Below, in pieces: positions 1,536 through 42,065 of a DNA stretch of 64,000 nt (position 1 is its first letter; each line of letters starts with the position of its first letter). The translations under genes and the position numbers were made by a program. This DNA is from a virus (taxonomy: Duplodnaviria; Caudoviricetes): positions 58,342 through 122,341 of IMG/VR virus record IMGVR_UViG_2894097338_000001; one strand, written 5' to 3'. The notes under the pieces are model-generated. The model was not told the origin of the DNA, made no database searches, and worked only from the letters and a program-made list of their open reading frames with translations.

Positions 1536-1594
1536 AGACTTGCCCTCCTTCTGTCATTGATGCCTCTTTATAAAAGACGCATTTTATTAACCGA

Positions 1595-1810
1595 TTATTT
1601 AAACTTTTTGTAACTTCGTTTTAAATCTTTTTTACGCACAATCTGCTCTATACCATCGGAATTACGAAATACCCTACCTCCAGTTTTTTGATAAATCTCA
1701 CCAGTCCACATTACTACATCCCCAGTTTCAAATAAGTGAAAGCAAAATGGCTCTCCTTCTACAATCTCATATCTTCTATCCATATATTTCTTCTTTTGAC
1801 GTTTATTCAT
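1595..1810 (-). CDS. hypothetical protein
   Basis: Likely start MNKRQ overlapping the upstream stop. Confidence 0.55.
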   Translation of the reverse strand: MNKRQKKKYMDRRYEIVEGEPFCFHLFETGDVVMWTGEIYQKTGGRVFRNSDGIEQIVRKKDLKRSYKKFK

Positions 1811-2102
1811 TTTTTTCACCATCATCTTTCTCTGGCACATTGTATCTTTTCGCCTCACCAGTGTGCAGGTCTATATACCCAATTTCTAGATAGGTAGAAT
1901 CATTGCCTCTCAAACAATAGCGTGCAGTTTTTTCTAAGATGCCACTTTCTGATGGCGATGTTTCTATAATAGACTCAATCCCACTGACGCATTCAGTGTC
2001 AAATAAGAGCCATAATTTAAGATGTGTATCTTCTACTGGAGCTGTTATGCAAGTGATATCAGATATTTTAATATTTCTTGTTTTGTCTGCACTGCTAAGC
2101 AT
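1803..2102 (-). CDS. hypothetical protein
   Basis: ORF with RBS, in array. Confidence 0.55.
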   Translation of the reverse strand: MLSSADKTRNIKISDITCITAPVEDTHLKLWLLFDTECVSGIESIIETSPSESGILEKTARYCLRGNDSTYLEIGYIDLHTGEAKRYNVPEKDDGEKNE

Positions 2103-2115
2103 TTCATACCTCTTT

Positions 2116-2436
2116 CTACTGCTTCTTATAAGCAGCCTTTAATTTACTTCCTCTTGTAAACATAATTTGTGTATACATGACAACCATTGGTTTCTTGTAT
2201 TTCATTCTTATAGCCATGCCAACTGAAATCCAGTCACTTCCTGTATATTTCATTAACTTCCTCTTGGCAGCCAATCTGATGTAGTAATAATATATCTGTA
2301 GTGGGATTGCTATAATCCATAAGATAGACCAGACTAAAGTGTCGATTACAAGTCCCTGCTCGTAGATCGCATAGCCACAAATTCCAACGAATATTGTAAT
2401 AGCAATGAATACATATAAAGCTGCGTATGTTAACAT
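2116..2436 (-). CDS. two-TM membrane protein
   Basis: Two hydrophobic N-terminal segments. Confidence 0.65.
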   Translation of the reverse strand: MLTYAALYVFIAITIFVGICGYAIYEQGLVIDTLVWSILWIIAIPLQIYYYYIRLAAKRKLMKYTGSDWISVGMAIRMKYKKPMVVMYTQIMFTRGSKLKAAYKKQ

Positions 2437-2981
2437 GATTCCTCCAGTGAAGCCTCTAATTCTAGAAGCTCTTCTTCTTTTTTATTTTTATATTTGTTTT
2501 TGGTTCGTTTATGGAAATAGGCTTCCTGTTCCTCAGTAGCAACTTTGAATGCTCCTTGACCAGTGGTTAGAGACATATCATCTAATCTAAATGAGTAAGT
2601 TCTTCCATTGCCTTTTCTCTTCCAGTTTACATATTCAAGAGTTATGCCAAATTGTCCTACATCTATAACCATTGCTAGCCATGATTCATCCCTTCCAAAG
2701 AAGTCGTTCTTCATAAACCAGATTGACCCAACTTCAATGTGCTCTCCCCATTTGTTCATTCCATATGGTAAAACCTTCCAGCTATCGTTAAATTCTTCGT
2801 ATGTTATATCAGATGTTTTAACTCTAGTTCCATCTTTACACCTAAGATTGACTCTGACCTCCTTGTGAGATCCGTTATCTCCTTTTGATGAAGTAACCAT
2901 CGTTCCAGTTTCGCCTGTCTTCACATTTAAGGCTTCTCTACTTCTATACATTGATACATATTTTACAGCCATTAATTTCAC
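2430..2981 (-). CDS. hypothetical protein
   Basis: 183-aa ORF in array. Confidence 0.7.
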   Translation of the reverse strand: MKLMAVKYVSMYRSREALNVKTGETGTMVTSSKGDNGSHKEVRVNLRCKDGTRVKTSDITYEEFNDSWKVLPYGMNKWGEHIEVGSIWFMKNDFFGRDESWLAMVIDVGQFGITLEYVNWKRKGNGRTYSFRLDDMSLTTGQGAFKVATEEQEAYFHKRTKNKYKNKKEEELLELEASLEESC

Positions 2982-3004
2982 TTCCTTTAAATCGATTCTA
3001 AGAT

Positions 3005-3667
3005 CTATTTGTGAATGATTACCCCTTTAGGTTTTGAACTTGCACCAGAATCTCCCTCTGACGACTTGCTATTTTTTACGAATTTACTTCTCAGCCATTT
3101 CCAAAAAGTATCGGTTTCTTTTAAGCGATTGTTTTCTTTTTCTAACTTTTCTAACTTACTTTTTAATTCTGCAATATCCTTGTTCTTATATCGAACACTT
3201 GTGTCAAGACTTTTGTTCTCTCTAATAAACGATTGTCGTTGAAGTTTAAGGTGAGTAACTGTATTTTTAAGTTCACCATTTTTAACAACCAGTAAACTAT
3301 TAGCTTTATGAGCATTTAATAAGCTGGACTGAGTTACACCCAGGAACTCGATTGATCCAAGCTCGCTATTCACTGTAAAACCAGCAACTGGAACATCTAA
3401 TACCTGTGCTAACAGTAATTCAATATTATCTACATAAACTTCTGTTTCTAATCTTGATTTAGAACTGCCTTTTAATGATCCCTTTTTAACATCGTTATAT
3501 GTAACGACTTCAATATTTAACCCCATCATTTCAGCCTGTTCATAGATAAACTTTTGCTGTTGATGATCTGATACTAATATTGGCACGCCTCTTAAGGCTG
3601 CCTCTTTAATTACTCTTGTTGTCTTTCCTTCTGCTCTGCCACTTGTAAAAATTTTTAACATTCCCAT
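3005..3667 (-). CDS. P-loop-like protein with C-terminal coiled coil
   Basis: SGRAEGKTT Walker A-like motif, VYVD Walker B-like motif, heptad-rich C-terminus. Confidence 0.6.
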   Translation of the reverse strand: MGMLKIFTSGRAEGKTTRVIKEAALRGVPILVSDHQQQKFIYEQAEMMGLNIEVVTYNDVKKGSLKGSSKSRLETEVYVDNIELLLAQVLDVPVAGFTVNSELGSIEFLGVTQSSLLNAHKANSLLVVKNGELKNTVTHLKLQRQSFIRENKSLDTSVRYKNKDIAELKSKLEKLEKENNRLKETDTFWKWLRSKFVKNSKSSEGDSGASSKPKGVIIHK

Positions 3668-4416: not shown

Positions 4417-5616
4417 TTATTTATCTTTCTTTTTTGCATCGAATAATTTGTTCTTACGAATAGATTTAAGTCGTTTAACCCAGTATTCCTTTTTGGTTTC
4501 TGATTTAACCCATTTAGATCCAACTAGCTCATTCTTAGGCTTGTTTTCTCCTTCTACAATTTCAATTAAATCTCCTGGTTCAAAAGGAACATTATTGTAA
4601 AGCTTCGATCCGACCTTGATTTCAACCATTTTGCCATGTTTGATATTAAATACTCTGGCGGTTGTTCTCGTTTTTCTGACAATTATATCAGTAACAAAAG
4701 CATATTTTCCAGGAATGTGTTCGAATGATGTTGTAACTCGACCAGTGTAGAATAGTTCGTTCTCAAGTGTTTCTACGGCCTTATAGTCATCAATCTTTTT
4801 ACTATTGAAAGCATCTAATATCATATTAAAGTTCTTGAATTTACCTGCATACGTTTTGTTTTTTGGTTTATATTTATTATTAAATAATTCATATGCAGTC
4901 ATTAATTGTTTAGGATTTCCAAATTCTGAAAAGTAGTTTAATTTAATTAATGGCTCCATATTTCTCTTATCTAAAGATGGAAGTGGAGTACCAATGACTT
5001 CATACTTATCTGGATTGGCTTTAATATCCTTGTCTAGTGCCTTAACTTCCTCTTCTGTATACGTTGTGTAAATTTCGTACAAACCTTTAACTTTACCATC
5101 AATTACTAAGCTTGTACCATCTTTGATACGAAGCATGAACTCAATCCAGTTTTTAAATTCTTCATCTTTTAATGAATATAAATCGTCTCCAGATCTCATA
5201 TTACAGTTCTTAATAGGTGAGGTTCCTTGATAGATTGTTTTTGTTTCAGTATCCATGAAGTATTCACCTTTTGAATATCTGAATTTTGGTTTTTCTAGTT
5301 TAATATTTTTAGATTCAGCATATTCTAAAAGTTTAACCGTTTTCTCCTGATCTCCGCCCCATACAATTAAACCTGCAGTACAAAATTCAACTGGATAGTA
5401 GTATCGTAACCATGTACAGATATATCCAATATAGCTATATGCGGAGGCGTGATTAATGGAGAAGCCATAGTTTACTGAGTCTAGGAATACTTGTACAAAG
5501 CTGTCTGCAACTTCTGTAGCATGTTCTTCCGTATCTCCGTATTTTTCTACCATCGTTCTAATGAATGACGGTTTGATTTTAGGAACTTCTTCATCCATTA
5601 TTTTATGATCCTTTTT
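4417..5616 (-). CDS. dnaE: DNA polymerase III alpha subunit, exon 2
   Basis: YGFSINHASAYSYIGY...LRYYYPVEF DnaE motif; resumes as AAA AAG GAT CAT (KKDH) after the intron omega-G at 5617; 1200 nt, in frame. Confidence 0.9.
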   Translation of the reverse strand, partial: KKDHKIMDEEVPKIKPSFIRTMVEKYGDTEEHATEVADSFVQVFLDSVNYGFSINHASAYSYIGYICTWLRYYYPVEFCTAGLIVWGGDQEKTVKLLEYAESKNIKLEKPKFRYSKGEYFMDTETKTIYQGTSPIKNCNMRSGDDLYSLKDEEFKNWIEFMLRIKDGTSLVIDGKVKGLYEIYTTYTEEEVKALDKDIKANPDKYEVIGTPLPSLDKRNMEPLIKLNYFSEFGNPKQLMTAYELFNNKYKPKNKTYAGKFKNFNMILDAFNSKKIDDYKAVETLENELFYTGRVTTSFEHIPGKYAFVTDIIVRKTRTTARVFNIKHGKMVEIKVGSKLYNNVPFEPGDLIEIVEGENKPKNELVGSKWVKSETKKEYWVKRLKSIRKNKLFDAKKKDK

Positions 5617-6928
5617 CGATTGTTGTTAACCTGTAGCTTTTTATCTACAGCTCTGGAGGTTTCCCTCATTTCCATCTGACGGTCATTTCCGCCCCAGTCT
5701 AGCATACATTTCCACCCTCGTTTAACGTTAGGCTCTTTTGAGGTATCTTTTATAAAGATACGTGAGGAACACTCGTGGTGGCATTATATTCTCTTGCGAG
5801 GTTCAGCCACTATGCGTTACGGTATCAAACGGCTTTATCCCTTTTGATTACCTCGGTATTAACATATTGATTATATACTTTCGTAAATTTTTGAAATTTT
5901 CTATCTAGCCAAAATATATCCTTTGAGTAATATAAATACTCATATAAAGCCAACACGTCTCTTATTCTACTAATCCTTAGACTAAGTATGTTCGAACCAT
6001 ACTTACTCATATCAACTAAGTTGTTGGCACTCTTGGTTAAAACATATTCGTTTTTGAGAATTTTATCTAATGTCACTCCGAACTTCTCATCCACGCAAAA
6101 TGCTGCATAACCTTGACAATTATCAACGCTCTTTACTTTTCCTGTTATAGTACCGTCTCCATCAAAATAACCTCTAATAAAGTCTGGATAGAACCTTTTA
6201 GGAATTTCTGGAAACTCCAGGTTGGCACATTGTTTACCCTTTACAACGTTATATTGTTTAAGATCATTGACAATATCAATGGATCCCAGATAGCAAACCG
6301 TATACAAGTGGCCTCGTCTTTCATAATCTTTCTTAACAGCAGTTGGACAAATTTCTGAGATAATAAAATCAATTATCTCCTCATCCTTTTTTGCACATTC
6401 AAGACGTAACAACTTTCCAGTAACTCTTCCATCTGCTGTTAGGTATCCTAATACGTAGGCCTTATTTGAGTTGTCGATTTCTTTAAAGTAGTCGTGAACG
6501 GTATTTCTATTATAATTCCCCCTTCCCTGTCCTCTGGAGTATCCACCGTTCTTTACTGTCAACTCAATTGTTTTTTGGTTACACCTTTCCTTGAAATGTC
6601 TCTCCCAAATTTCAACAGAGTTTAGATATTCCTCGCAGTACAGGGTCTTAACCAGGTCTTTCTCTTTGGCTGTCAGAGAAAAAGCGCTTGTTCTTCCACA
6701 TTTTTTAAGAAATCGTCCAATCGTCGTATCACTTCTATTTAAGATATTGGCTATATCTACATTTGTATATTTTTCATCATTTAATTTAAGTATAGTTTCT
6801 TTCTCACCATCTGTGAGTAATGTTCTTTTCGTCATTTATACGCTCCTTAAGAGTATATAACCAACTTAGTCTCCACCGATTTTGCTCCTTTACGACTAGA
6901 TGTTTCCATTCTAGCTAGGCAAAAATTT
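5617..6928 (-). mobile_element. group I intron in dnaE (1312 nt) carrying a homing endonuclease
   Basis: Exon 1 ends ...ATC GGT (U); intron starts AAATTTTTGCC (P1 with U.G wobble); AATCGGTG/ATACCGAGG (P4); GTAACGCATAG...GTATGCTAGACT (P7); ends AACAACAATCG; splicing restores RRGIG|KKDHKIM. Confidence 0.88.
5825..6835 (-). CDS. intron-encoded double-motif LAGLIDADG homing endonuclease with N-terminal HTH
   Basis: YVLGYLTADG and FIRGYFDGDG motifs; own AAGGAG RBS inside the intron. Confidence 0.9.
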   Translation of the reverse strand: MTKRTLLTDGEKETILKLNDEKYTNVDIANILNRSDTTIGRFLKKCGRTSAFSLTAKEKDLVKTLYCEEYLNSVEIWERHFKERCNQKTIELTVKNGGYSRGQGRGNYNRNTVHDYFKEIDNSNKAYVLGYLTADGRVTGKLLRLECAKKDEEIIDFIISEICPTAVKKDYERRGHLYTVCYLGSIDIVNDLKQYNVVKGKQCANLEFPEIPKRFYPDFIRGYFDGDGTITGKVKSVDNCQGYAAFCVDEKFGVTLDKILKNEYVLTKSANNLVDMSKYGSNILSLRISRIRDVLALYEYLYYSKDIFWLDRKFQKFTKVYNQYVNTEVIKRDKAV

Positions 6929-9016
6929 ACCGATTCCTCGTCTTATTAAGTCAGCCTGTGCTGTACTCCAGCCACAAAACTCTTCTAAGAACGCGGTCTG
7001 TTGTTCTTGATATACTAAGTATCCAAGTGTATCTTTAAAGAAATCATTAAGTGCCTCATGACCATTGTCGTGAAACTCACCCATTAATATTGAGTCAATC
7101 GTTGATGCTCCCGACGGCCTTTGCGCAGCGTTCAATAGGCTTAACAGGTCTATCATTTTTAAATCTGGATTCTGTTTTCTAATCTTAGAAATAACCTGCG
7201 GCTGAAATAGATCTTTTACCAGTTTTCCAGCTCTAACACCTTCAAATTGAAAAATTCCAATATTTGACTCCCTCATTGAATCCCATACTTTTTCATCCTC
7301 AAAGTCTATTATATCCGTTGAGTCTGGAGTTAATCTAGGTAGCCCAACTAAATCTGCAGTGATGTTGATTAATCCCATGTTATCCAGTCCAAGAACGTCA
7401 AGTTTAACGAAGTTTAAAAAGTCTACTTCTTTCATTGTTAACTCCGTCACTGGATAGTCCCATTTTGAAATTGTCATTGTCCCCATTTCAGAATCGAGAT
7501 CTCTAGTTGTTACAACAACTCCAGCCGCATGTCGGCCTATTGACGTCATAACACCAACTACTTTGAACGCTGTATCGAACAATTCTTTATGCGCTTCGTA
7601 TAGATCGAAAGGATAATCGCCGTCATCATCTATTTTCTTGGTTATTTCGTTTGTTACATCGGCGTTATAGCCCATTGATCTACCGATATCCTTGATTGCG
7701 CCTTTCAGTCCAACTGTATTCTTAGTTACAATACTTGCGCATGTTAGGTCTGGATGCTCTAATAAGAACTTCTGAACCCTATCTCGGTCTGGCTTATAGT
7801 AGTCAGAGTCTATGTCTGCTAGAGAGATACGCTCTGGATTCATGAACCTCTCAAAGTTTAGTCCGTGTTCTATAGAGTCCATTTCTGTTAATCCTATCAG
7901 ATATGCTATCAAGCTACCAGATACAGATCCACGTCCATATCCAGAGTAGATCTTCTCTGGCTCCGTAAAGTCTTTCACTGTTCTCTCTAGCAGCATATAG
8001 TTAACAGAGCCTGTCTTTTTATATGTTGCATATTCGTGTTTAATTCTTTTAGCATATTGCTTCTGAGTCTCTTTTGGAAGTCTCGCAATATTTCTTGTTT
8101 TTAATCCTTTTTTGATTCTTTTTTGAAACTCTTCTTCTGGGTTATCGTAAAGCTGAGGATACTTAATCGATCTCTCAAACTCAAATTCCTCTATAGAGTC
8201 AACTATAACCATCGTGTTATCTAAGGCTGTCTCAACTTGCTCTCTTGTTAATACGCCTTGAGTTTCGAATGATTCGATCATTGCGTCTCTTGACTTAGCT
8301 GTTAAGTCTAATTCATCCTCTCCAGCAAATTCAATTTTTTTGGCCTTTTTCATAATCTGTCTTAAATTGTCGTGCTCTTCATTAAGTGCATGAACATCAT
8401 TAGTTGCTACCAGATTCATTCCATGTTTTTCGGCCATTCTCAATAGGATTTTATTATATTGAACCTGTTCTGGATCTGTATGAGGTTGAACCTCTAAATA
8501 AACTCTATGTTTATTCTCTGCGAAAAAGTTCATCCATCTACTAAATGCTTCTTTGTTTTTGTTTTTTGCGTGCTGCCATAATGGATTCCCCAAACATGCG
8601 GTAAGGATAATAATGTTATCACTTGTGTTTTTAATCTCTTCAAAAGAGTTACGAGGATTGAAATAATAGTGTCCGTCTTCTCTATTATGTGCGATAGATG
8701 AAAGTCTATTAATCTCTTTAACCCCTTCTTCATTTTTTGCAATCATCGTTAAATGATAATTATCCCTAACCTTTTCGTCCAATGACTCTGTTACATATGC
8801 CTCTATTGCGTGAATGTATTTAAGTCCAGCTTTTTCAACCATTTGCTTCTTCTGAACCCAGTTTAATATCGTACCGTGTTCAGTGAAAGCTACGGCTGGT
8901 GCTCCCTGCTCTTGCGCCAATTTAATATAATCCTCTGGTTTACTCACACACTCGAACATATTACTATTGCTGCGATCAGAATGCATATGTAAATGTACAA
9001 ATTGTTTGTTACACAT
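6929..9016 (-). CDS. dnaE: DNA polymerase III alpha subunit, exon 1 (PHP and palm)
   Basis: HLHMHS PHP motif, GRGSVSGSLIAY, FERFMNPER, ADIDSD, GRHAAGVV, KLDVLGL. Confidence 0.95.
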
Positions 9017-25402: not shown

Positions 25403-25403
25403 A

Positions 25404-30229: not shown

Positions 30230-30232
30230 AGC

Positions 30233-31686: not shown

Positions 31687-31737
31687 ATAAGTTTCCCCTT
31701 TTATTTTTATAGTAAAAATTCTTTTTTATTCTGCCCT

Positions 31738-32196: not shown

Positions 32197-32219
32197 AATT
32201 TCCTCCGTTGATGTACTTT

Positions 32220-32390
32220 TTAAATAGAATCTATAATAATAGTTCTACATTCGCCTTTGCTTTCTTTTACGGCCTCTTCCAGATCCTTGAATACATTATC
32301 ACTGTTCTCGTTAGTAAGTAGTGATTTGTTAGTCTGATATAATCCACACGTATCAATTACTATATCTGTAGGAAATACTACACCTTTCAT
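32220..32390 (-). CDS. small hypothetical protein (not in ORF track)
   Basis: AAGGAGG RBS, MKGVVFPTDIV...IDSI*. Confidence 0.5.
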   Translation of the reverse strand: MKGVVFPTDIVIDTCGLYQTNKSLLTNENSDNVFKDLEEAVKESKGECRTIIIDSI

Positions 32391-32424
32391 AAATGACTTC
32401 CTCCTTATAAAATGTTCATTTTAT

Positions 32425-32868: not shown

Positions 32869-32870
32869 TT

Positions 32871-33131
32871 TTATAACTCCTTAATAAATTTTTCTGTTTC
32901 TAATACTCCAGTCAACTCCAGTAACCCCATAGCAAATGTAATGACTTGATCTTTTGTCATCTGATCATTTACTCCATGATTAATAAGGATAAACTCTAGA
33001 TCATCTGCCTCGTAATCGCTTGGTTTGTAATGACGCATTTCAGCTGTAATATAATTTCTTTTGTTTGTAGCCCCAGATCTTAATATCGCAACTCGATTAT
33101 CTTCATGTTTTGGCATTCTTTCTACCTCCAA
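32871..33131 (-). CDS. hypothetical protein
   Basis: ORF in array. Confidence 0.6.
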   Translation of the reverse strand: MEVERMPKHEDNRVAILRSGATNKRNYITAEMRHYKPSDYEADDLEFILINHGVNDQMTKDQVITFAMGLLELTGVLETEKFIKEL

Positions 33132-33155
33132 TTTGCTCGTTTGTATAAGTTGATA

Positions 33156-33190
33156 TCTAGAGAATCAATCTCGAGGAAAAATTCTCTAGA
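33156..33190 (-). terminator. stem-loop downstream of J-domain gene
   Basis: TCTAGAGAAT...ATTCTCTAGA inverted repeat. Confidence 0.45.
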
Positions 33191-33201
33191 TTCGGGACAA
33201 T

Positions 33202-33921
33202 TTATTTTTTCACTTCAAATTTTGGACTCTTAACTCTTGCTGTCTTCTCAACGATTCTAAAACCTTTGTCGTATTTTCCAAGACCAAAGCTATAGTAGAA
33301 GTTTGTGCTAAAGTAGTCGATCATACCGTCGCTATCGTCGTATCTATAAGACATAAGCTGCTCGAAAACATCATTTAATACTTCATATCCAAAATCATTT
33401 AAGATAGGCATTTCCTCTCTATCTCGCATTCTATGAATATCAATGTTAATTCCACCTGCTTTAAAATCTTCTCCTTCTTCGTGATCGTAAAAGTCTACGT
33501 AGCAGTTATCTTTAATCTTGTCGCGCTCTAGAATTTCATAAGGGGCCTCCATTGCTGCCACGCTGATAGAAGATCCTCCACTATAGAATTGACATGTGAT
33601 ACTGAATTTCCAAGTCGGATAAACTTCTTTTACATATTTTCTTAAGTTTGCTGCAATTTCTTTTGTTCCAAGATTAGAATTATACTGGCTACCAGCCCAT
33701 CCATATTGAGTGTAAAATTCAGATCTTGTGCTGCTAGCTGTTTCTGTTGTTTTGACTTTACTCTTCGTTTTCCAAATCGGGAATAGCATATCGTATTCAT
33801 TGTTAATTTCTTTAATTACTGAATCGTCTCCGCCAGTAATGTCTGGATGATGCTTTTTCGATAATTCTCTAAATTGTTTCTTTAAATCATCAAATGATTT
33901 AACTCTCTTAAAATGTGCCAT
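33202..33921 (-). CDS. J-domain protein fused to LPD29-like domain
   Basis: LKKQFRELSKKHHPD...KEINNEYD; C-terminal KFSIT...YSGGSSI...YRYDDSDGMIDYFSTNFY. Confidence 0.8.
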   Translation of the reverse strand: MAHFKRVKSFDDLKKQFRELSKKHHPDITGGDDSVIKEINNEYDMLFPIWKTKSKVKTTETASSTRSEFYTQYGWAGSQYNSNLGTKEIAANLRKYVKEVYPTWKFSITCQFYSGGSSISVAAMEAPYEILERDKIKDNCYVDFYDHEEGEDFKAGGINIDIHRMRDREEMPILNDFGYEVLNDVFEQLMSYRYDDSDGMIDYFSTNFYYSFGLGKYDKGFRIVEKTARVKSPKFEVKK

Positions 33922-34033
33922 GTTAATCTCTCCTTTTTAATTGTAAATACTTATGGTTCTTTGAAACTTTTGCTGATGAATGAATCATAACACTATATAC
34001 TTTTGTTGTCAATGCTTATGGTTAATATTTTTT

Positions 34034-34282
34034 TTACATACCAAAAGATTCTTCTGCAGCTTCAATCATTTCTGATTCGTCATTCTCTCTTACCTCTTTG
34101 ATATACTTGTCAAACATAGATAAAAACTCTTCAAGCTTATATAATTCTTTTACTGCAGCTGTTCTCTCATTGTGACAAGTATCAATTTCTTCTATCTTAT
34201 AAGCATGTTTTATTTGACGACCCATTATTTCAACCGTAACTTTTCTATCTTCGATTATCTTCAAAATGTCTTCTCTACTCAT
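34034..34282 (-). CDS. hypothetical protein
   Basis: early-region ORF with RBS. Confidence 0.6.
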   Translation of the reverse strand: MSREDILKIIEDRKVTVEIMGRQIKHAYKIEEIDTCHNERTAAVKELYKLEEFLSMFDKYIKEVRENDESEMIEAAEESFGM

Positions 34283-34284
34283 AT

Positions 34285-34521
34285 TTATTTTCCCTCCTGG
34301 ATAATTTCTTTATTTTCTTGACTATTTCCATCTACGATAATTTTTTCTTTTCGTCCAAGCTTGTACATTACACTCAATCCCATGTCGTTACCTTCGTACA
34401 CTGATCTGTAATGGTCGGCTAACATATCCGCCGTCATTATATCCCAACACATAGCAAGCTCTATTCCTTTGTGATTCTCTATATTATTATCCACCAACAT
34501 GAATTTATGTTTTCTTCTCAT
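34285..34521 (-). CDS. hypothetical protein
   Basis: early-region ORF with RBS. Confidence 0.6.
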   Translation of the reverse strand: MRRKHKFMLVDNNIENHKGIELAMCWDIMTADMLADHYRSVYEGNDMGLSVMYKLGRKEKIIVDGNSQENKEIIQEGK

Positions 34522-34523
34522 GA

Positions 34524-34796
34524 TTAACTCCCTCTTTTCTTAATTTGTAATTTAGTTTTTAGCTTAAATGACTCGTAACTCTTCTGTCTAATTCTATCAG
34601 CAAAATCTCCTATGTGACTTGTAAGTGGTATCCAATTTCCCTCCTTAGTTAATCCATACATTGTAACATTTCCCTGCTGTAGTCTAAATTCCTCTCTCTT
34701 AACCCCTGCGAACTCGCATAACTCTTCTACCAGTCTTTTCTTTTCTTTATTCATTACTGACTGTGTAGTGAACTCAATTGACTCAAATTCAAACAT
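34524..34796 (-). CDS. hypothetical protein
   Basis: early-region ORF with RBS. Confidence 0.65.
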   Translation of the reverse strand: MFEFESIEFTTQSVMNKEKKRLVEELCEFAGVKREEFRLQQGNVTMYGLTKEGNWIPLTSHIGDFADRIRQKSYESFKLKTKLQIKKRGS

Positions 34797-34810
34797 TTTC
34801 TATTCCTCCT

Positions 34811-35002
34811 TTATTTTTCATCCATAATTTCTTCAATTTCTGAAATCTCACCATCGCTATATCCTAGCTCGTTTAAATATTTTTTATCCTCTACACTAAG
34901 CTCTTCGCAACTTCCCAAGAATGAAAAACACTCATTAGTGATTGTTTCTGTTGTACTATTTTTGTCTACATCAAACCTCTTAAACCATGCTCTTAAACTC
35001 AT
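34811..35002 (-). CDS. acidic hypothetical protein
   Basis: early-region ORF with RBS. Confidence 0.6.
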   Translation of the reverse strand: MSLRAWFKRFDVDKNSTTETITNECFSFLGSCEELSVEDKKYLNELGYSDGEISEIEEIMDEK

Positions 35003-35083
35003 ATTAACCTCTCCTTATTAAAAGTTTTTCTCCATAAGACACTCATAATATGAATGCCTTAGCAAAAATTCTTTTTATTCCTG

Positions 35084-35335
35084 TCATCTTTTATACTTTG
35101 AAGCAAAGATGACTTGCCCCATAAATTCGATATATTCTTCTCTCTTAAAGCCATCTATTTTAACTTCTACCTCGTGAGTTGAATCAAGTTGTTCCCTATC
35201 ATATAAGTTATTCTGTTGATAATTACCTATTAAATACTCTGTATTATCTCTTTTGATTCTCTTTTCTGGTTTAAAATAATTTTTCTCTGTTTCTGAATGA
35301 TAAACTAAATATGGTTTTTCTTTAAAAATCTTCAT
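35084..35335 (-). CDS. hypothetical protein
   Basis: early-region ORF with RBS. Confidence 0.6.
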   Translation of the reverse strand: MKIFKEKPYLVYHSETEKNYFKPEKRIKRDNTEYLIGNYQQNNLYDREQLDSTHEVEVKIDGFKREEYIEFMGQVIFASKYKR

Positions 35336-35377
35336 GATATATTCCTACTTTCTAAAATAATTGTTTTATCTACATTT

Positions 35378-35629
35378 CTATTCCACATCTTTTCTAAAAT
35401 TAACTATCATGTATTCAATCCATTGCTCTGGTGTGCTTCCGTATGTATATCCGTTGTAACTACACTGTTTCCACATATTAATACTTATATTTTGACTTAT
35501 TTCATTTTCTGTACAATTGTGTTCTTCCAACTTTTTATTTAGAATTTCCATATATTCATCTTCGGATACTTCGACTTTATAAGAGTCTCTTCCTGTTTCG
35601 TACTTTGACTTGATGACCTCTATTCTCAT
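35378..35629 (-). CDS. hypothetical protein
   Basis: early-region ORF with GGAGGA RBS. Confidence 0.65.
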   Translation of the reverse strand: MRIEVIKSKYETGRDSYKVEVSEDEYMEILNKKLEEHNCTENEISQNISINMWKQCSYNGYTYGSTPEQWIEYMIVNFRKDVE

Positions 35630-35677
35630 TTCAATTCCTCCAATAAATTCTTTTTATTTGTGTAATTTTTTATCTAG

Positions 35678-35875
35678 TTAAAATTCTATATTTGTACATA
35701 TCTCAAAAGCTTCATGATTAGTAAATTTATCCATTGCCCACTTTTGAAAAGAATAGATAGCTTCACTTTTTGTAATTAAACCTCTATCAAGTAAAGATTT
35801 TTCTTTATTGTATCTTTCATTAACCTCGCTATTCTCTGCTAAATCTAACAAGTGTGTAAAGTTATATTTTTCCAT
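35678..35875 (-). CDS. hypothetical protein
   Basis: early-region ORF with RBS. Confidence 0.6.
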   Translation of the reverse strand: MEKYNFTHLLDLAENSEVNERYNKEKSLLDRGLITKSEAIYSFQKWAMDKFTNHEAFEICTNIEF

Positions 35876-35978
35876 TTCAATTCCACCTTTATTTTATTTT
35901 TCTTGATAAAAGAAATATTCTATCAATCGTGTTCGCTTTGTTCTGCGATTATTTCCGCCTTTAATTTTTATTTTTTTA

Positions 35979-36437
35979 TTAGTCTTCTTTTGAATTTTCA
36001 AAATCTTCGATTCGTTTCATTGCGATGTTTACTCCCACCAGTAACGCATTATCATTCTTGATTTGATCGACAGTCATTCCAAGTGCTTCAATAGCAGGAT
36101 CAGCGTCATAAGTATATCCATATTCATGGTTGTTTAGCTCGTACTCAAACATATCTGCGATATATCCTGTTCCGTCTTTATCTTCTGCGATATTTCTTTT
36201 TTCTTCTGCCCTTATCTCTTCAAACATTTTTTCATAAGCTTCTGCGTCAGTTTTTCTAATGATTCCTCCACCTGCAATTGATAACACTTTGTCTTTGTCG
36301 TCTTTTGTAAGGCCTAAATCATTCATTGCTTCCTCGAATTGTTTTTCATCAAAGAAGAATCTCATAGGAAATTCGTTTACTCGTTTTTGATGTCTGCTTT
36401 TCATTTCTGCGTATTTGTTAGTCATTTTATTTTCCAC
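35979..36437 (-). CDS. conserved mobile-element hypothetical protein
   Basis: FPMRFFFDEKQF...GGGIIRK...MFEYELNNHEYGYT motif seen in Firmicute mobile elements. Confidence 0.7.
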   Translation of the reverse strand: MENKMTNKYAEMKSRHQKRVNEFPMRFFFDEKQFEEAMNDLGLTKDDKDKVLSIAGGGIIRKTDAEAYEKMFEEIRAEEKRNIAEDKDGTGYIADMFEYELNNHEYGYTYDADPAIEALGMTVDQIKNDNALLVGVNIAMKRIEDFENSKED

Positions 36438-36446
36438 CTTTATTTT

Positions 36447-36656
36447 TTAGTTTTTGTATTCTTTATATCTAAGTTCATATCCAATATTTTCCGATGTTTC
36501 TATGTACCACTGTTCGTGGTCTCGATAATTTTCTTTTGTTTCTGACTGACTAGCTAGGTTTTTCATAAAATTGTCGGCCGCTTCAAAGTCTTTATAATTT
36601 GTCGATGTTTGGCCGCTCATTGTTGATTTTATTATTACGGCATTTTCTAATTTCAT
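36447..36656 (-). CDS. hypothetical protein
   Basis: early-region ORF with RBS. Confidence 0.6.
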   Translation of the reverse strand: MKLENAVIIKSTMSGQTSTNYKDFEAADNFMKNLASQSETKENYRDHEQWYIETSENIGYELRYKEYKN

Positions 36657-36738
36657 GATGTCTCCTTTCGATTTTTATTAACCTTGCTTATCACTGCGTT
36701 TCGCATTTAATAAAATTTCTTTTTATTTCTGACAATAA

Positions 36739-37104
36739 TTATTGCTGACCGACAATTACTTGTGGACGATTATTTAATTGGTATAACATTACTACTTGAT
36801 TAATATAAGACTTCTTCTTATCTAATTTATTAGCTACCTCTAATTGAGTTAGTCCATAAGATAATAGATGTCTAATGTCATTCGCTAGGTTTGACGTTTT
36901 GTTCTTTCCGTTTTCACTCATTCTTGTTGCTAAGGCCAAGTAAGCTGATAGATTATTGTTTTCGCCTTTTACATAAGATACTTCTGTAATAATTCCATTC
37001 TGCTCTAATCTCGCGATTGTCTTAAGTCCTCCAACAAATTTTCTGTTCTCATAAGTCACGTTGCCACCATTTAATTTTGTAATATCAAACCCTAAATTTT
37101 TCAT
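36739..37104 (-). CDS. protein with C-terminal HTH
   Basis: GLTQLEVANKLDKKKSYINQV. Confidence 0.7.
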   Translation of the reverse strand: MKNLGFDITKLNGGNVTYENRKFVGGLKTIARLEQNGIITEVSYVKGENNNLSAYLALATRMSENGKNKTSNLANDIRHLLSYGLTQLEVANKLDKKKSYINQVVMLYQLNNRPQVIVGQQ

Positions 37105-37307
37105 TTTTCTTCCTCCTAAAATTTCTTTTTAATGCTGCCCTACATATTTGTGTATTTAACGTTTTCTCTAGCTCTCATAGTTAGATAAAATTCAATTTCA
37201 TCATCGTTGTAGCGTCCATCATAAATATCTGATAAGCCTATATTTGCTTTTCCTTTAACCTCTTCTGCAATTTCTTTCATTCTTTCCTGTGTCATCTTTA
37301 TTTCCTC

Positions 37308-37547
37308 CTAGATTAATTTCTCTAATGATTTTTCTAATACTAAAGCTTCTACGTCGTCATATGTGTAGTCAGTTAGGAAAAATTCTAAATCTTGCTGACC
37401 ATCTGTCACACCGTCTAGCCACTTCTCAACAAACTCTCTTTCAAACGCGACTACCTTCTCGACACCTTTTTCTTCATAGTATAAAATTACTGGGTTTATA
37501 ATCATCTTGTTTCCTCCTAAAATTTTTTTAATTGCTCCATAGAACAC
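37308..37547 (-). CDS. hypothetical protein
   Basis: True start probably MIINPV after GGAGG. Confidence 0.6.
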   Translation of the reverse strand: MFYGAIKKILGGNKMIINPVILYYEEKGVEKVVAFEREFVEKWLDGVTDGQQDLEFFLTDYTYDDVEALVLEKSLEKLI

Positions 37548-37596
37548 TTAATTAATAAGTGCTCTAGCAACGATTAAAGATGTAAATACTTATGGT

Positions 37597-37914
37597 TTAA
37601 TGTGTTGTTACTGATATTCCATGTAAGTCACTTGTAACGAACAGCGTATCGCAACCATAATACCCGCATACACTTTCAAAGATCCCAGCTGGCGTCTCTT
37701 CACTGAATAAGTTTGAATATAAATCTAACACCGATTCAAAACTTGCGTCGTAGTAGTATGTTTGACAATCGCTATCAACTTCATTAATTATCTCTTCGGC
37801 GTTGCCCGATGGTTTTCCAAGGCAATTCTTAATTGATTTTTTTAAATCTTCGTCTGTTATATCTTTTTCTTGGAAATACTGCTCTAGTCTCTCTTCAAAT
37901 GTTTTCATTTTCAT
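37597..37914 (-). CDS. acidic hypothetical protein
   Basis: early-region ORF with GGAGG RBS. Confidence 0.65.
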   Translation of the reverse strand: MKMKTFEERLEQYFQEKDITDEDLKKSIKNCLGKPSGNAEEIINEVDSDCQTYYYDASFESVLDLYSNLFSEETPAGIFESVCGYYGCDTLFVTSDLHGISVTTH

Positions 37915-37933
37915 TTCCTCCGATAATTTCTTT

Positions 37934-38191
37934 TTATTTTTGCCCTTTATAATTCATGTGTTCGTATCGCTTGCTCAAAACCTCGTCAGTATCTTTATTC
38001 ATACGCTTTTCAATCTCTTTGCCAAGCTTATTGTTTGATTCATCATCTAGTAATTGAAGCATCCAAGTTTGTCTGTTGTGAAGAGTATGATAATAATCTG
38101 CTTCTTGCTTCCTTTCTTTAAGTGCTGCGGCCATAACTACCACCGTTACTAATAAGATTCCTATCACTAACTTACTTGTATGTTTTTTCAT
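37934..38191 (-). CDS. small signal-anchored protein
   Basis: N-terminal TM. Confidence 0.65.
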   Translation of the reverse strand: MKKHTSKLVIGILLVTVVVMAAALKERKQEADYYHTLHNRQTWMLQLLDDESNNKLGKEIEKRMNKDTDEVLSKRYEHMNYKGQK

Positions 38192-38229
38192 TTTTCTTCC
38201 TCCTAAATTTTCTTTTTTATTTGATAACT

Positions 38230-38607
38230 TTAAATTGAAATAACTACGAATGTTTTAAAGTTGGCTGGCGTACCATCTGTCAATTGGAATATGTTTAAAT
38301 AATCTTCTGCAAACTTCTCAACATCATTTAGATATTTTTCCCACTTACTCGCTACTGTTGTGTCATTATCTCCGTAGTAGTCAATGTATTCTTCTACTGT
38401 CATATCAATAGTTCTATCAAATTCTTTTCTTGCGTACCCTCTAGCAATTTTTTTTAATCCATCTTCTCCACAACACTCTTCAATAGCCTTCAATGCTGTG
38501 TCGTATATTAGTCCGTCGTACATAAATGACTCGTAAAACATCTGCTCATGATTCTTTCTAACATCTGCCAATTCTTCTTCTGATAAAAATTCTTTTACTG
38601 TTTTCAT
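38230..38607 (-). CDS. acidic hypothetical protein
   Basis: early-region ORF. Confidence 0.65.
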   Translation of the reverse strand: MKTVKEFLSEEELADVRKNHEQMFYESFMYDGLIYDTALKAIEECCGEDGLKKIARGYARKEFDRTIDMTVEEYIDYYGDNDTTVASKWEKYLNDVEKFAEDYLNIFQLTDGTPANFKTFVVISI

Positions 38608-39146
38608 TATTTTCTTCCGCCTTTAATTTTTTCTACAATCTCGTTCACTGCCGATTTCATAAGTTGATTGTCACTAAATAATTGCGACCAATAATGATAT
38701 GGACTATCTTCATCTTTCCAGGCCTTCATTACTGTGTCTGAATATCTAACACTTGTCACAAACTCACCATACTCATGTAGGTCACAATCTCCATCGATAG
38801 CTTCGTATCCTTCGTTGATAATGTCACCTTGAATGCCAACCATTTCTAATATGTATGAGATATCCTCTTGATTAAATTTATTTTCTAATGTTTCCATTTC
38901 CATTTCCTCCGCTTCATCTTCTCCGTTTATCCAAGCTACTGCTTTTTCTAATGTGTCAAATTCCTCTACGTTGCATTCTGAATAGGTTTCATTTATGACT
39001 CCTATAAAAATTTCTCCATCTTGGAAAATAAAGCTGCCTGTATTTTCGCTTGTAAATTCATAGCTTTCGTTATCCTGTCCTTTGCACCATTCATCTATAA
39101 TCTTGCTTCCAGTTTCTTTTTCGATAAGTTTGTAAGTCATTTCCAT
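38607..39146 (-). CDS. acidic hypothetical protein
   Basis: early-region ORF. Confidence 0.65.
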   Translation of the reverse strand: MEMTYKLIEKETGSKIIDEWCKGQDNESYEFTSENTGSFIFQDGEIFIGVINETYSECNVEEFDTLEKAVAWINGEDEAEEMEMETLENKFNQEDISYILEMVGIQGDIINEGYEAIDGDCDLHEYGEFVTSVRYSDTVMKAWKDEDSPYHYWSQLFSDNQLMKSAVNEIVEKIKGGRK

Positions 39147-39198
39147 TCCTCCGATAATTTCTTTTAGTTGTTAAAATCATCATTTTATACAGTTGTCA

Positions 39199-39573
39199 TT
39201 AATCAAATTGCATATCAGTTATCCATTGGTCTATTGTGTCAATCAGTAAATTATAGTTAATAAACTCGGAATAATCATGGCTGTCAACAAACATCTTCCA
39301 GCTATCCTTTAAGTCACTTTCGCTGCCTCCGATTTCATTTTTATATTCTTTCTCATAAAAATCTTTAAAATCATCAATGTTTTTGCAATAAATATTGGCT
39401 GATTCTAATACGCTTAATGCGCTACAAATACATGTTACTTCAAACGACTCTTCAAATGTCTCTTTCTCCATTTCTCCTTTTAATGTTTTTGCATACTCTA
39501 TAATTTCACTTTCAGTCATGCTAGATTCTAATTTTGAAAAATCATCTAATACCTTATATTGCTTTTCTTTCAT
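39199..39573 (-). CDS. acidic hypothetical protein
   Basis: early-region ORF. Confidence 0.65.
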   Translation of the reverse strand: MKEKQYKVLDDFSKLESSMTESEIIEYAKTLKGEMEKETFEESFEVTCICSALSVLESANIYCKNIDDFKDFYEKEYKNEIGGSESDLKDSWKMFVDSHDYSEFINYNLLIDTIDQWITDMQFD

Positions 39574-39607
39574 TTTAATTCCTCCTAAAATTTCTTTTAT
39601 TCGTTAA

Positions 39608-39844
39608 CTACTCTTCGTCAAACTGACCAACAAGCCATTCATCACTGTAATATTTCAAATCTTCGTCACTTAATTTTGAGAAGTCCATATCGTCTTCTGT
39701 CTGTCCTTCGAATTGCCCATGTCCTCTCATAATTTCTAATCTTTCAATAATGTACTTTCTTTCTTCGATTCCCATTTCATTTCCTCCTAAATTTTCTTTT
39801 TTACGCTGCTTTATAAATCGCTTCGCCGTTGCTAAATTGCGCAA
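39608..39844 (-). CDS. small acidic protein
   Basis: True start probably at the GGAGG-led MGIEERK. Confidence 0.55.
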   Translation of the reverse strand: MRNLATAKRFIKQRKKENLGGNEMGIEERKYIIERLEIMRGHGQFEGQTEDDMDFSKLSDEDLKYYSDEWLVGQFDEE

Positions 39845-40307
39845 CCTTCAATAATGGCGTTGTATACTTGCCAATTAATTTAAGTAAACGTTTGTGGTGT
39901 GGTGTGTACTGTTCCAATAATTCAGCTTGTGTATCGTAGTATCCGTCAAGTAAATTGTCGGGATCGGTCTCTACAATTACTTGCACACCTGCATAGTACC
40001 CACTTTCAAGAGTTAACTCGGCTACAAGCTTATCTGTTTTGTTATAAACTTTTGCTGAATAATTTCCTTTTTCCTTTACTACTGTATAGCCGCGTTCTGT
40101 CAACCAATAGTTTAGGCCGCAACCGTCGTTAAACATTTCTCCACAATCCATTTCTTCATACATGTTAATTTCTTCCTGGATGGCTTCTTCTGTAATATCT
40201 GCCAATTCCCAGCCGTTTTCGATTAAATTTTCTTTTGCGTCTGACTCACTTATTTGTTGTAATACGAATATACCGTTCTCATGATTCCAAAAATTGTTAG
40301 TTGCCAT
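39801..40307 (-). CDS. conserved phage early protein
   Basis: MATNNF...LESGYYAGVQ...VAQFSNGEAIY. Confidence 0.7.
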   Translation of the reverse strand: MATNNFWNHENGIFVLQQISESDAKENLIENGWELADITEEAIQEEINMYEEMDCGEMFNDGCGLNYWLTERGYTVVKEKGNYSAKVYNKTDKLVAELTLESGYYAGVQVIVETDPDNLLDGYYDTQAELLEQYTPHHKRLLKLIGKYTTPLLKVAQFSNGEAIYKAA

Positions 40308-40695
40308 TATTATTTCCTCCTAAAATTTCTTTTTTTGCTAAAAATTCTTTCGCGATTATGCCTTGTTGCTTAGCCACTTCGTAGTAATCATTTTCGTATT
40401 CTGTAATATACCCACAGGCTTCCGTAAATGTATAAGCAATTTTTAGTAGAAATTCGTCATCTTCACTGCTACCTAGCTTAAATGTACCCTCATCTTTATT
40501 TAATCTTTTTAAGTACCCTAAATCTATCAACTCGTCTAGGTAATCAAATTCGTGGTCTAGCATGTACTCTCTTGTACGACTCTTTACTTCTGTCTCAACT
40601 CCAATCTCGGTTTTATTCACTTCCTTTTCCCAAATTTCAAAATGATTACCTTTACTTAAGGCACTTTCAATTATTTTCTCTTTCAATGTCAACAT
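40297..40695 (-). CDS. hypothetical protein
   Basis: early-region ORF. Confidence 0.65.
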   Translation of the reverse strand: MLTLKEKIIESALSKGNHFEIWEKEVNKTEIGVETEVKSRTREYMLDHEFDYLDELIDLGYLKRLNKDEGTFKLGSSEDDEFLLKIAYTFTEACGYITEYENDYYEVAKQQGIIAKEFLAKKEILGGNNNGN

Positions 40696-40820
40696 TTTCT
40701 AATTCCTCCTAAAATTTCTTTTTATTTGTGTTAAATCACTTACTAGATTGTACGAATGGAAGTTTTTTTATTTTTCCTGTAGGAAGGTTCATACAATCTA
40801 GCAAGTGATTTAACACTTGC

Positions 40821-41129
40821 TTATTCCATTTCTGGAAAATACTCTTGATATAATTTATCTGATATGTAACCACTATGAGCGAATAGAAATTTTCTTCCTT
40901 GCGTTGCCGTTTGTTCGCTATCAAGTTTTTTATTTTCTAGCATAATATCGCCATCTTTATTTTTCCCGATATACTCTGCATTTAATACGCCGTCATACTC
41001 TTTTAGTGCCGATTCACTAACTTTTACTTGATTGAAGTGAAAGCTGCACTCATTCCAAAAGTTGTGACCATTTAAAATCAATTCGCCGTCATAGTATTCT
41101 GTTGTCGCCATTAATTCATGTAATTTCAT
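40821..41129 (-). CDS. hypothetical protein
   Basis: early-region ORF. Confidence 0.65.
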   Translation of the reverse strand: MKLHELMATTEYYDGELILNGHNFWNECSFHFNQVKVSESALKEYDGVLNAEYIGKNKDGDIMLENKKLDSEQTATQGRKFLFAHSGYISDKLYQEYFPEME

Positions 41130-41185
41130 TTTTAATTCCTCCGATTTTTATTAGGTAAAATTTCTTTTTTGTCCGATGTAAATAC

Positions 41186-41752
41186 TTATGCTTCTGTATA
41201 GAAACAAGGGAAGTCACAATCGTCTACTGCTTCACTCATTAATTCATCAAGTTTTTCGTCACTTAATTTTTTTAATTCCTCTTCCGTCCATTGTTCGTTT
41301 CCGCCATACTCTTTCCACCAATCTTCTAAAGCGTAGATATGCCAGTCTCTATCCGTAGGGAATTTTTTTCTAAAGCAATCGCCGTTACATAAATAATCGC
41401 CATCTGCATATCTAAACATTCCTTCGCCACTTGTAAAGTGATGTCCGCATTCGTCACAGTGTTGGTACACATGACCGTCTTCATCTAAAAGCTCGCGAAC
41501 CCAATCTAAAATTTCTTTTAATCCCGACACAGGTTCAATATTATTTTTTCCTCCAGTCGTTTGTTCTCCTTGGTATGCCTTGCCAAAACAATCAATTAGC
41601 CAATAACTAACACCCATTGCTTTAAATTCTTTTTTCTCATGAAAATCTCTAATAAGTTCGCAAGCTTCATACATTTTTCCGTCATTACCTAAGATGTTTA
41701 TTGTTCCTTCAAATTCCACCATTAATTCGATAAGTGCTCTTAATTCTTTCAT
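41186..41752 (-). CDS. hypothetical protein with Zn-finger-like Cys
   Basis: CDEC...CNGDC. Confidence 0.65.
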   Translation of the reverse strand: MKELRALIELMVEFEGTINILGNDGKMYEACELIRDFHEKKEFKAMGVSYWLIDCFGKAYQGEQTTGGKNNIEPVSGLKEILDWVRELLDEDGHVYQHCDECGHHFTSGEGMFRYADGDYLCNGDCFRKKFPTDRDWHIYALEDWWKEYGGNEQWTEEELKKLSDEKLDELMSEAVDDCDFPCFYTEA

Positions 41753-41764
41753 TTTCTATTTCCT

Positions 41765-42065
41765 CCTAAAATTTCTTTTTATTCGTGATATTAGTTATTT
41801 TCTTGCAATGTTCTTATTTCAGCTAAAATTTCTTTTTGAGTGTAGGCATGAGCCGTTTGGCAGCCAGTCGCACCGAATATATAGCCATCTTTACAATAAG
41901 CCCAATAACCATCGCCATCATGTATTTCATCAATAAAATCTGCATATTTTTTAGGTACTTTAATTTTTGTCGGGTTTTTCATTTTAATTTTCTCCTTTTA
42001 TTTTAGGCAAGCGTTCCTGTTTGTCACTTGCCTAAAATTTCTTTTTATTCGTGATATTAGTTATT
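41765..42065. repeat. perfect 35-bp direct repeat flanking a one-gene module
   Basis: CCTAAAATTTCTTTTTATTCGTGATATTAGTTATT at 41765-41799 and 42031-42065. Confidence 0.9.
41791..41982 (-). CDS. small hypothetical protein
   Basis: ORF with AAGGAG RBS between 35-bp repeats. Confidence 0.65.
   Translation of the reverse strand: MKNPTKIKVPKKYADFIDEIHDGDGYWAYCKDGYIFGATGCQTAHAYTQKEILAEIRTLQENN

Follow-up and report, generated by a model that had tools for sequence, protein, structure and literature searches.

What is the short palindrome TAAAA-N6-TTTTA that recurs between the small accessory genes of a 64,000-nucleotide stretch of viral DNA (Caudoviricetes; IMG/VR record IMGVR_UViG_2894097338_000001, positions 58,342 to 122,341)? 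This stretch, hereafter the window, is the final 64 kb of a 122-kb contig (C54), of which the first half carries tail genes, including that of a 2761-residue tape measure protein. An original prediction, made from the letters of the window alone, had read the palindromes as recombinase sites at which small genes are inserted or shuffled as mobile cassettes, in the manner of integrons. According to our analysis, and with a probability of roughly 0.55, they are addressed crossover joints for gene exchange in SPbeta-like phages. Judged by genome comparison, phage genomes recombine joint with like joint; a recombinase, we infer, would exchange the strands. The cassette interpretation stands as regards phage-specific sites at the borders of exchanged blocks, but not as regards its integron-like character or the free shuffling of cores.

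Because 66 of the 177 open reading frames (ORFs) of the contig match p35B2_c1, a circular 135-kb plasmid of Vagococcus fluvialis, in conserved order and mostly at 30–60% amino acid identity, and because ten match Bacillus phage SPbeta (terminase at 41.5%, polymerase, helicase, primase, YomM, YopP and others), the element of about 122 kb is, by its gene content, a distant SPbeta-like phage-plasmid, whose nearest named relatives are V. fluvialis plasmids. No description of the palindrome was found in the literature searched, including the available text of PMC8270828, bioRxiv 10.1101/2021.11.22.469490 and PMC10516654; the 1999 SPbeta genome paper and supplements fall outside this search, and an earlier mention is possible. 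The window adds a more distant, Vagococcus-type phage-plasmid member to a feature that is apparently undescribed in the literature.

A palindrome at accessory gene junctions

The window holds 11 exact copies of TAAAA-N6-TTTTA, whereas 1.07 are expected and none of 100 dinucleotide shuffles reached 11. The intergenic DNA of the contig taken alone (13,193 nt) also yields 11 copies, against 0.54 expected and a shuffle maximum of 4 (n = 300), and the enrichment over shuffled background proposed as a check of the original prediction is therefore present on both counts. It depends on spacing (N6, 11 copies; N7, none; N5, 6; N4, 4). The arms of 5 bp are invariant through the definition of the search, and the dyad-symmetric 5-6-5 geometry, which resembles that of tyrosine-recombinase sites, extends to about 10-4-10. 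Two inverted arms around an asymmetric centre of 6–8 bp, the layout of simple tyrosine-recombinase cores, are found in these sites. The sites of the window, to which no strand is assigned, are as follows (X2 and X3 are sequencing runs whose contigs are compared with the window in the next section).

1571–1586: TAAAA-N6-TTTTA site with centre GACGCA on the plus strand, amid small minus-strand genes.
23242–23257: palindrome site, 6 nt past the guanylate kinase stop codon and 243 nt upstream of the YopP-like gene.
27068–27083: palindrome site flanked by convergent genes; a block also found in p35B2_c1 stops 3 nt beyond it.
28836–28859: best site, with 9-bp arms TTGATAAAA/TTTTATCAA; X2 and X3 contigs start matching exactly at 28840.
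29424–29439: palindrome site with an overlap to the preceding stop codon; an X3 block of homology stops at 29443.
31713–31728: palindrome site between genes; no X3 block border, the nearest being 79 nt off.
32408–32423: palindrome site, 1 nt past the upstream stop codon; an X3 block begins at 32401.
35353–35368: palindrome site; an X3 block ends at 35369, and a 31-nt stretch of site plus ribosome-binding site recurs in p35B2_c1.
35907–35922: one-mismatch copy with TTGA/TCAA flanks, from the motif scan.
39172–39187: palindrome site; the nearest X3 border is at 39141, 31 nt off.
44797–44812: exact copy in AT-rich non-coding DNA, of uncertain significance, from the motif scan.
47028–47043: exact copy within ORF 46833–47423, from the motif scan.

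Nine of the ten sites listed in the original prediction are exact in both position and centre (1571, 23242, 27068, 28840, 29424, 31713, 32408, 35353 and 39172), while the tenth, at 35907, has one mismatch in its right arm (TTCTA), although its TTGA/TCAA flanks are present; the copies at 44797 and 47028 are exact and additional to that list. The 9-bp arms claimed at 28840 are there, as is the 15-mer of arm plus ribosome-binding site common to 29415 and 35344, downstream of which the two products are without a match by blastp. Sites had been described as lying near the upstream stop codon and ahead of the next gene, and they indeed lie from -8 to +11 nt relative to the upstream stop on the coding (minus) strand and 13–40 nt from the next start (16–35 nt in most co-directional cases), those at 27068 and 28840 being located between convergent genes. 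The scarcity noticed by eye in the replication and head operons is complete for exact copies, with none in 2–21 kb (replication genes) or in 53.6–64 kb (head genes) of the window.

The same spacing stands out in the related genomes. Compared with the mean at other spacings, N6 copies number 17 vs. 2.67 in C54, 25 vs. 1.67 in p35B2_c1 (where other spacings give at most 5) and 34 vs. 1.67 in SPbeta, and the symmetrised consensus of the two Vagococcus-type genomes has arms of about 10 bases, with four central positions under weak constraint between them. The whole genome in which the contig lies (2.88 Mb) has 60 copies, and the 122-kb phage contig accounts for 17 of these. Because the extended form (at most 3 mismatches) is found 9 times on the contig vs. 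5 times in the remaining 2.76 Mb, i.e., at an approximately 40-fold higher density, the motif belongs to the phage and not to a host regulon; the host chromosome shows no enrichment. Three control stretches likewise lack an N6 peak: two elements sharing the MrpR-like protein alone (G005 and G030) and 40 kb of phage FADO, which has a weak Xer-like match and whose recombinase is no clear YopP orthologue. Of the 118 stretches returned by a pattern scan of IMG/VR, almost all have one site only, and no close relative of the window is among the ten with at least three copies.

Centres as possible addresses and borders of exchanged blocks

Within a genome, the six-base centres are almost always distinct (17 of 17 in C54, 34 of 34 in SPbeta, 24 of 25 in p35B2_c1), and palindromic ones are absent among the 76. 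In Goe13, SPbeta centres are found again with their order kept (11 of 12 in one region, 8 of 13 in the other), even though only 56–64% of the DNA aligns in the regions compared; at 5 of 11 shared sites of the second region, the 60-nt flanks are unrelated on either side (23–38% identity). Since each site's centre is thus kept in fixed order among relatives, the comparison points to like-with-like exchange rather than free shuffling, and it lends no support to the Tn916-like tolerance of heterologous cores that had been invoked for these sites.

Block borders were taken from megablast blocks, SPbeta 70–96.5 kb being compared with Goe13 and phi3T and a second region (109–134 kb) with Goe13. Among the 25 distinct block ends of the first region, 9 lie within 12 nt of a site edge and six of these within 2 nt; among annotated junctions, borders occur at 9 of 10 with a site vs. 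9 of 40 others (one-sided Fisher p = 1.6e-4). In the alignments, homology starts at the left edge of a site or stops 0–6 nt past its right edge, and the centre is identical in both phages. For the second region, a site edge is no more than 12 nt away from 3 of 18 block ends, and when both regions are pooled, borders occur at 13 of 21 site junctions vs. 14 of 79 others (p = 1.5e-4), a value in which independence is overstated, these genomes being kin.

The lineage of the window itself could be followed in sequencing runs, of which twenty hold part of positions 27000–36999 and two at least half of its sampled words. Assembled contigs of four runs (X2 to X5) were aligned to 23001–43000, and border counts were drawn from the matches listed for three long X3 contigs, after exclusion of joints with a short side (e.g., X2 23240 to 27047, with a side of 21); at parts of the window outside the cover of the X2–X5 contigs, absence carries no weight. 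An X3 block begins with the first base of site 28840 and ends 4 nt beyond site 29424 (28840–29443), another X3 block starts 7 nt ahead of site 32408 (32401), and a block end at 35369 lies 1 nt beyond site 35353; the match of an X2 contig likewise begins at 28840. Among the matches listed, 4 of 18 internal X3 borders lie 0–7 nt from a site edge (binomial p = 3e-4), and borders are found at 4 of 6 site junctions vs. 6 of 31 others (p = 0.035). The comparison with p35B2_c1 shows a block of 322 nt, 90% identical, that stops 3 nt beyond site 27068, and the 31-nt stretch of site plus ribosome-binding site (35340–35370) recurs in another gene context. The original prediction had expected breakpoints of gene gain and loss in the N6 core; block borders were found within 7 nt of 4 of the 6 covered sites in X3 and at the pooled SPbeta frequency given above. 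By genome comparison, crossovers map to the site, with borders 0–7 nt from site edges both in X3 and in SPbeta vs. Goe13 and phi3T.

Each joint follows a stop codon closely and precedes the next ribosome-binding site, and because of this position an exchange leaves both neighbouring genes intact. Each joint carries its own non-palindromic six-base centre, and genome comparison shows that related phages recombine joint with like joint, whereby the intervening genes are replaced and the gene order kept. Under the mechanism that we propose, the reaction would most likely be a site-specific strand exchange across the six-base centre, carried out by a simple Cre/Xer-like tyrosine recombinase sitting as a dimer on the two arms, for which the YopP-family protein encoded at 21910–22998 is the leading candidate. 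We regard as doubtful the more ambitious version, i.e., a genome-wide cassette exchange extending from Bacillus to Vagococcus SPbeta-like phages, in which the YopP-family enzyme would join only same-centre joints of co-resident phages or prophages, as if at 17–34 numbered addresses. If true, accessory, defence and counter-defence genes would be swapped slot by slot, with gene order and reading frames undisturbed.

A second repeat family was observed in the same part of the window.

36711–42047, minus strand: second repeat family TAAAAAGAAATTTTA (5-base spacing), with copies at 36711, 37117, 40710, 41767 and 42033, and a 4-base form at 39586.

In four cases, GGAGGAA directly follows this repeat or its 4-base form, and a GC-rich hairpin comes after the copy at 42033. 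The 72-nt stretch at the latter copy is 90% identical to one in p35B2_c1, where the palindrome has a 6-base spacing. Several joints of runs X3 and X5 coincide with copies of the second repeat.

Candidate enzymes and competing explanations

Two proteins with a recombinase fold and one further DNA-binding protein encoded in the window have to be considered as partners of the palindrome.

21910–22998, minus strand: YopP-family tyrosine recombinase, 362 residues, candidate enzyme (homology, residues, structure model).
20260–21525, minus strand: MrpR/SroF-like protein of recombinase fold, 421 residues, probably a repressor and not the binder of the site (profile matches).
55359–55658, plus strand: HU-family DNA-binding protein, alternative candidate binder; a YonN-like gene also occurs in SPbeta and p35B2_c1.

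SPbeta YopP finds its best match in the 362-residue protein (25% identity over 284 residues, E = 1e-14), and the YopP orthologues of the window, p35B2_c1, SPbeta and phi3T, together with eight database relatives, keep R, K, H-x-x-(R/K), H and Y. The AlphaFold model of the 362-residue protein (mean predicted local distance difference test, pLDDT, 69.7) matches Cre, lambda Int, XerH, Tn1549 Int and XerA, which are two-domain recombinases acting on simple palindromic core sites. The R/K/H/H/Y residues originally noted in this protein are thus kept, along with a Cre/Xer-like fold and orthology to YopP, while the role at the sites assigned to it is one that it may have; as the enzyme at the sites, we put it forward tentatively. 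Of 401 genomes sampled from the class, a profile search recovered the YopP family in 2. In the second of these (G464), an unrelated genome that is not an SPbeta-like phage and has 15 sites in 3.1 Mb, the sole site of a 93.5-kb contig lies 173 nt past a YopP-like gene, a placement with an estimated chance of about 0.002. At that locus (G464:C15:48436-51879), the palindrome following the YopP-like gene is of the extended form, and a protein with a TOTE conflict-system primase domain is encoded about 1 kb further on. Searches of phages with the 362-residue protein by tblastn gave 6 weak matches in Bacillus phages, and sequence searches of the PDB with both recombinase-fold proteins returned nothing useful. 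A near-consensus sigma-70 promoter (TTGACA, 17 nt, TATACT; 23067–23039, minus strand) points into the YopP-like gene and probably drives an operon of the recombinase, a 120-residue protein and the MrpR-like protein. The available text of the SPbeta-phage literature describes YopP as a conserved core gene with a XerC-type integrase domain and gives no further role. A second candidate enzyme would be the YomM-like canonical recombinase (C54:17205-18269; PF00589, 57 bits), the gene of which adjoins the tape measure gene.

The original prediction, besides naming the protein at 21910–22998, had allowed for either recombinase-fold protein, but the 421-residue one resembles the MrpR/SroF repressor, whose family binds an asymmetric box as a monomer, and is itself probably a repressor rather than the binder of the site. 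It matches PF22822 (E = 0.0018, below the cut-off) and PHROG 5830, annotated “integrase” (E = 5e-17), and all 16 of its 16 database homologues carry a precomputed PF22823 match, with homologues seen at 74–93% identity; a tblastn search of phages with this protein gave zero matches. According to the text available for MrpR, recombinase function has been lost and ten peaks obtained by ChAP-seq all lie at a box named SPBRE (PMC10516654), while the accessible part of a study of SroF, of the same family, reports a monomer on an asymmetric box of 26 bp (bioRxiv 10.1101/2025.11.27.690993). Because MrpR peaks are seen at SPBRE only, SPBRE differs in sequence and SroF is monomeric, the palindrome would have another partner. 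Moreover, SPBRE and the palindrome are both present in SPbeta, as different sequences, and G005 and G030, sharing the MrpR-like protein alone, show no motif peak. A ParB-type binder was also rejected, the contig encoding no ParB_N domain.

Several observations weigh against crossover joints served by a YopP-family enzyme. On rough ORF calls, copies lie inside ORFs (5 of 17 in C54, 10 of 25 in p35B2_c1, 9 of 34 in SPbeta). The centre is partly constrained in Vagococcus phages (T in 48 of 84 at the first position, A in 42 of 84 at the third), which would also suit a continuous operator. Only three centres are common to C54 and p35B2_c1, and by position their order differs. In SPbeta 109–134 kb, borders occur at 4 of 11 site junctions vs. 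5 of 39 others (p = 0.09), which is a trend only, and several block ends of this region stem from introns or inteins of nrdE/nrdF. Among the X3 matches listed, 14 of 18 borders are away from sites, and the gene at 30233–30487 is cleanly deleted in X3 without any site. As for the enzyme, the YopP-like protein of the window has Lys in place of the expected Arg II, scores 24.6 bits on PF00589 where the cut-off is 27.1, and is modelled with a pLDDT below 50 over the segment bearing the Tyr (residues 269–318); finally, yopP in SPbeta and in p35B2_c1 has no site within 600 nt.

The palindrome might instead be a repeated binding site for a regulatory or architectural protein, either a dimeric repressor acting as a roadblock or an HU/IHF-like protein of the YonN type, with block borders arising through the short homology offered by islands of 16–24 nt. 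Dyad symmetry, arms conserved to about 10 bp, a partly conserved centre and copies within genes would all suit such a site; all three phages (that of the window, p35B2_c1 and SPbeta) carry an HU-family gene, the phage encodes Sak4-like annealing and exonuclease functions able to use short homology, and SPbeta-like phages employ many dispersed operator boxes, as the SPBRE described in the available text of PMC10516654. However, the known repressor, MrpR/SroF, peaks only at SPBRE and reads its 26-bp asymmetric box as a monomer, and SPBRE has another sequence than the palindrome and is embedded in promoters, whereas the sites do not coincide with promoter-like sequences. A promoter function was itself rejected, with 95 promoter-like sites vs. 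90.7 expected and none tied to the sites. Since this explanation also leaves unaccounted for the centres that are unique in each genome and ordered between relatives, and the borders 0–7 nt from the site edge, we hold it to be possible, if rather improbable.

The position of the palindrome, fixed just past a stop and ahead of the next start, and the related repeat of 5-base spacing abutting GGAGGAA, could also recall an RNA element, i.e., a short hairpin controlling the translation, processing or stability of polycistronic early transcripts, but the hairpins are weak (mean -2.3 kcal/mol in C54 and SPbeta vs. -1.9 and -2.0 in flanking controls), the arms are conserved in sequence and not merely in pairing while the loop varies, and copies also occur between convergent genes and within genes, all of which makes this very unlikely; a stable hairpin as such was rejected, predicted folds being near those of the flanking controls. 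Nor do we favour the idea, unlikely in our view, that the recombinases serve only the upkeep of the plasmid or prophage (dimer resolution or single-site integration) and that the palindromes are unrelated to them. The element does look like a plasmid-prophage (ParA at 49353–50261, circular 135-kb relatives), such replicons usually carry a resolvase, and no site stands beside yopP in SPbeta or p35B2_c1; yet SPbeta integrates via the serine recombinase SprA and still retains YopP and YomM, and a site adjoins the YopP-like gene in G464, as one lies 243 nt upstream of the YopP-like gene in the window. Lastly, the left arm often contains a stop codon (8 SPbeta copies have the TAA of their arm as the stop), which might betray a by-product of AT-rich intergenic composition and TAA stops, but this is refuted by the intergenic null (0.54 vs. 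11), by the sharp peak at spacing 6 in three genomes and by the lack of enrichment in the host chromosome and the three control elements, and we consider it to have practically no chance of being right. Addressed crossover joints remain our preferred reading.

Neighbouring features and known systems

In the first 43 kb of the window (1–43 kb), nearly all genes are on the minus strand. The window encodes replication proteins (DNA polymerase III alpha, a DnaB-like helicase, primase, a Sak4-like protein and exonucleases) as well as ParA, a UvrD-type helicase and the large terminase. Because ParA (302 residues, 49353–50261) has a small partner ORF within 49353–50804, and because complete circular relatives of 135 kb are filed as plasmids, the gene content suggests a prophage kept as a plasmid and not integrated. 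DNA polymerase III alpha is split into two ORFs (6911–9016 and 4417–5598, minus strand; locus 4417–9016), between which lies a 336-residue ORF (5825–6835) with LAGLIDADG and HTH_38 matches; since it separates the polymerase halves, this ORF probably represents the insertion of a homing endonuclease (intron, intein or free-standing). Four ORFs of the tail region, upstream of the window (C54:7320-13017), have 92–100% protein identity to p35B2_c1, against 30–60% for the rest of the genomes, which looks like a recent swap of a tail or host-range module. Accessory genes include those of guanylate kinase (23264–23797), a MazF-like toxin homologue (24013–24414) and a DnaJ-domain/LPD29 protein (33202–33921). 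Megablast of the halves of the phage region against a phage collection gave zero matches, scans of IMG/VR and metagenomes with the 421- and 362-residue proteins found no relative, and a DNA search across 101 related genomes returned short matches only.

The borders in mosaic phage genomes are usually put down to illegitimate or short-homology recombination, events that are rare and then filtered by selection. With conserved, addressed joints between genes, a model temperate phage family would have a programmed way of becoming mosaic; the joint is common to phages with only 20–40% identical proteins and with hosts of different orders. If true, this would give YopP a function, help to explain how accessory genes, immunity and counter-defence genes among them, move between these phages, and possibly provide a natural set of orthogonal recombination sites; what the window adds is that a YopP-like gene found outside any SPbeta-like phage (in G464) adjoins one such site.

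In integrons, attC sites are long imperfect palindromes recombined as folded single strands, and IntI lies beside attI and Pc at the end of the array. The sites studied here are comparable in being of tyrosine-recombinase type and in standing at the ends of single, co-oriented, mostly promoterless genes, but they are double-strand palindromes of 16–24 bp, and the exchange would be in register between genomes rather than a capture at one end of an array. The integron-like label given at first is therefore not retained: neither attC-type folded sites (folds of about -2.3 kcal/mol, like flanking controls) nor an attI/IntI/Pc layout was found, and the YopP-like gene lies within the site region, with sites on both sides (1571; 23242–39172). 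Heterospecific lox/FRT sites, used for recombinase-mediated cassette exchange, have identical arms and differing spacers, and only sites with like spacers recombine. The collinear unique centres seen here are similar, as is the swapping of the segment between two sites with order unchanged, except that lox/FRT variants were engineered from one natural site, while the present 17–34 sites would form a putative natural, genome-wide set, known from sequence.

Acinetobacter plasmids carry dif modules flanked by pdif (XerC/XerD) sites (PMC6449649, available text). As in these, a large replicon has an accessory region with many short sites of recombinase type scattered through it, which bound small modules in varied contexts. 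As far as that text goes, however, pdif sites are similar to the dif of the host, whose Xer proteins are assumed to act on them, whereas the motif here is phage-specific, its arms are a true palindrome, each copy has its own centre, its candidate enzyme is encoded by the phage, and the element that carries it is a phage and no Acinetobacter plasmid; the palindrome is not distributed as a copy of host dif would be, the extended motif numbering 9 on the phage contig vs. 5 in 2.76 Mb of host DNA, with symmetric arms. The PeSL cassettes of T4-type phages, which the accessible part of PMC2839356 presents as strong sigma-70 promoters with terminator hairpins recombining by homology, share with our sites the form of short repeated intergenic elements among small non-essential genes and the shuffling of modules between related phages, but the sites here have no promoter association, no stable hairpin and only 10 fixed bases. 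Finally, within the same phage lineage, the SPBRE/MrpR system (YopR/SroF) likewise combines dispersed boxes with a binder of tyrosine-recombinase fold, a distant MrpR-like gene being present at 20260–21525. In the text available on it, and in contrast to the palindrome, SPBRE is asymmetric, embedded in promoters and read by a monomer, with 10 ChAP-seq peaks vs. 34 palindromes in SPbeta. Altogether, while a defining feature of each natural family tested is absent from these sites, they resemble dif modules, heterospecific lox/FRT sites and PeSL cassettes.

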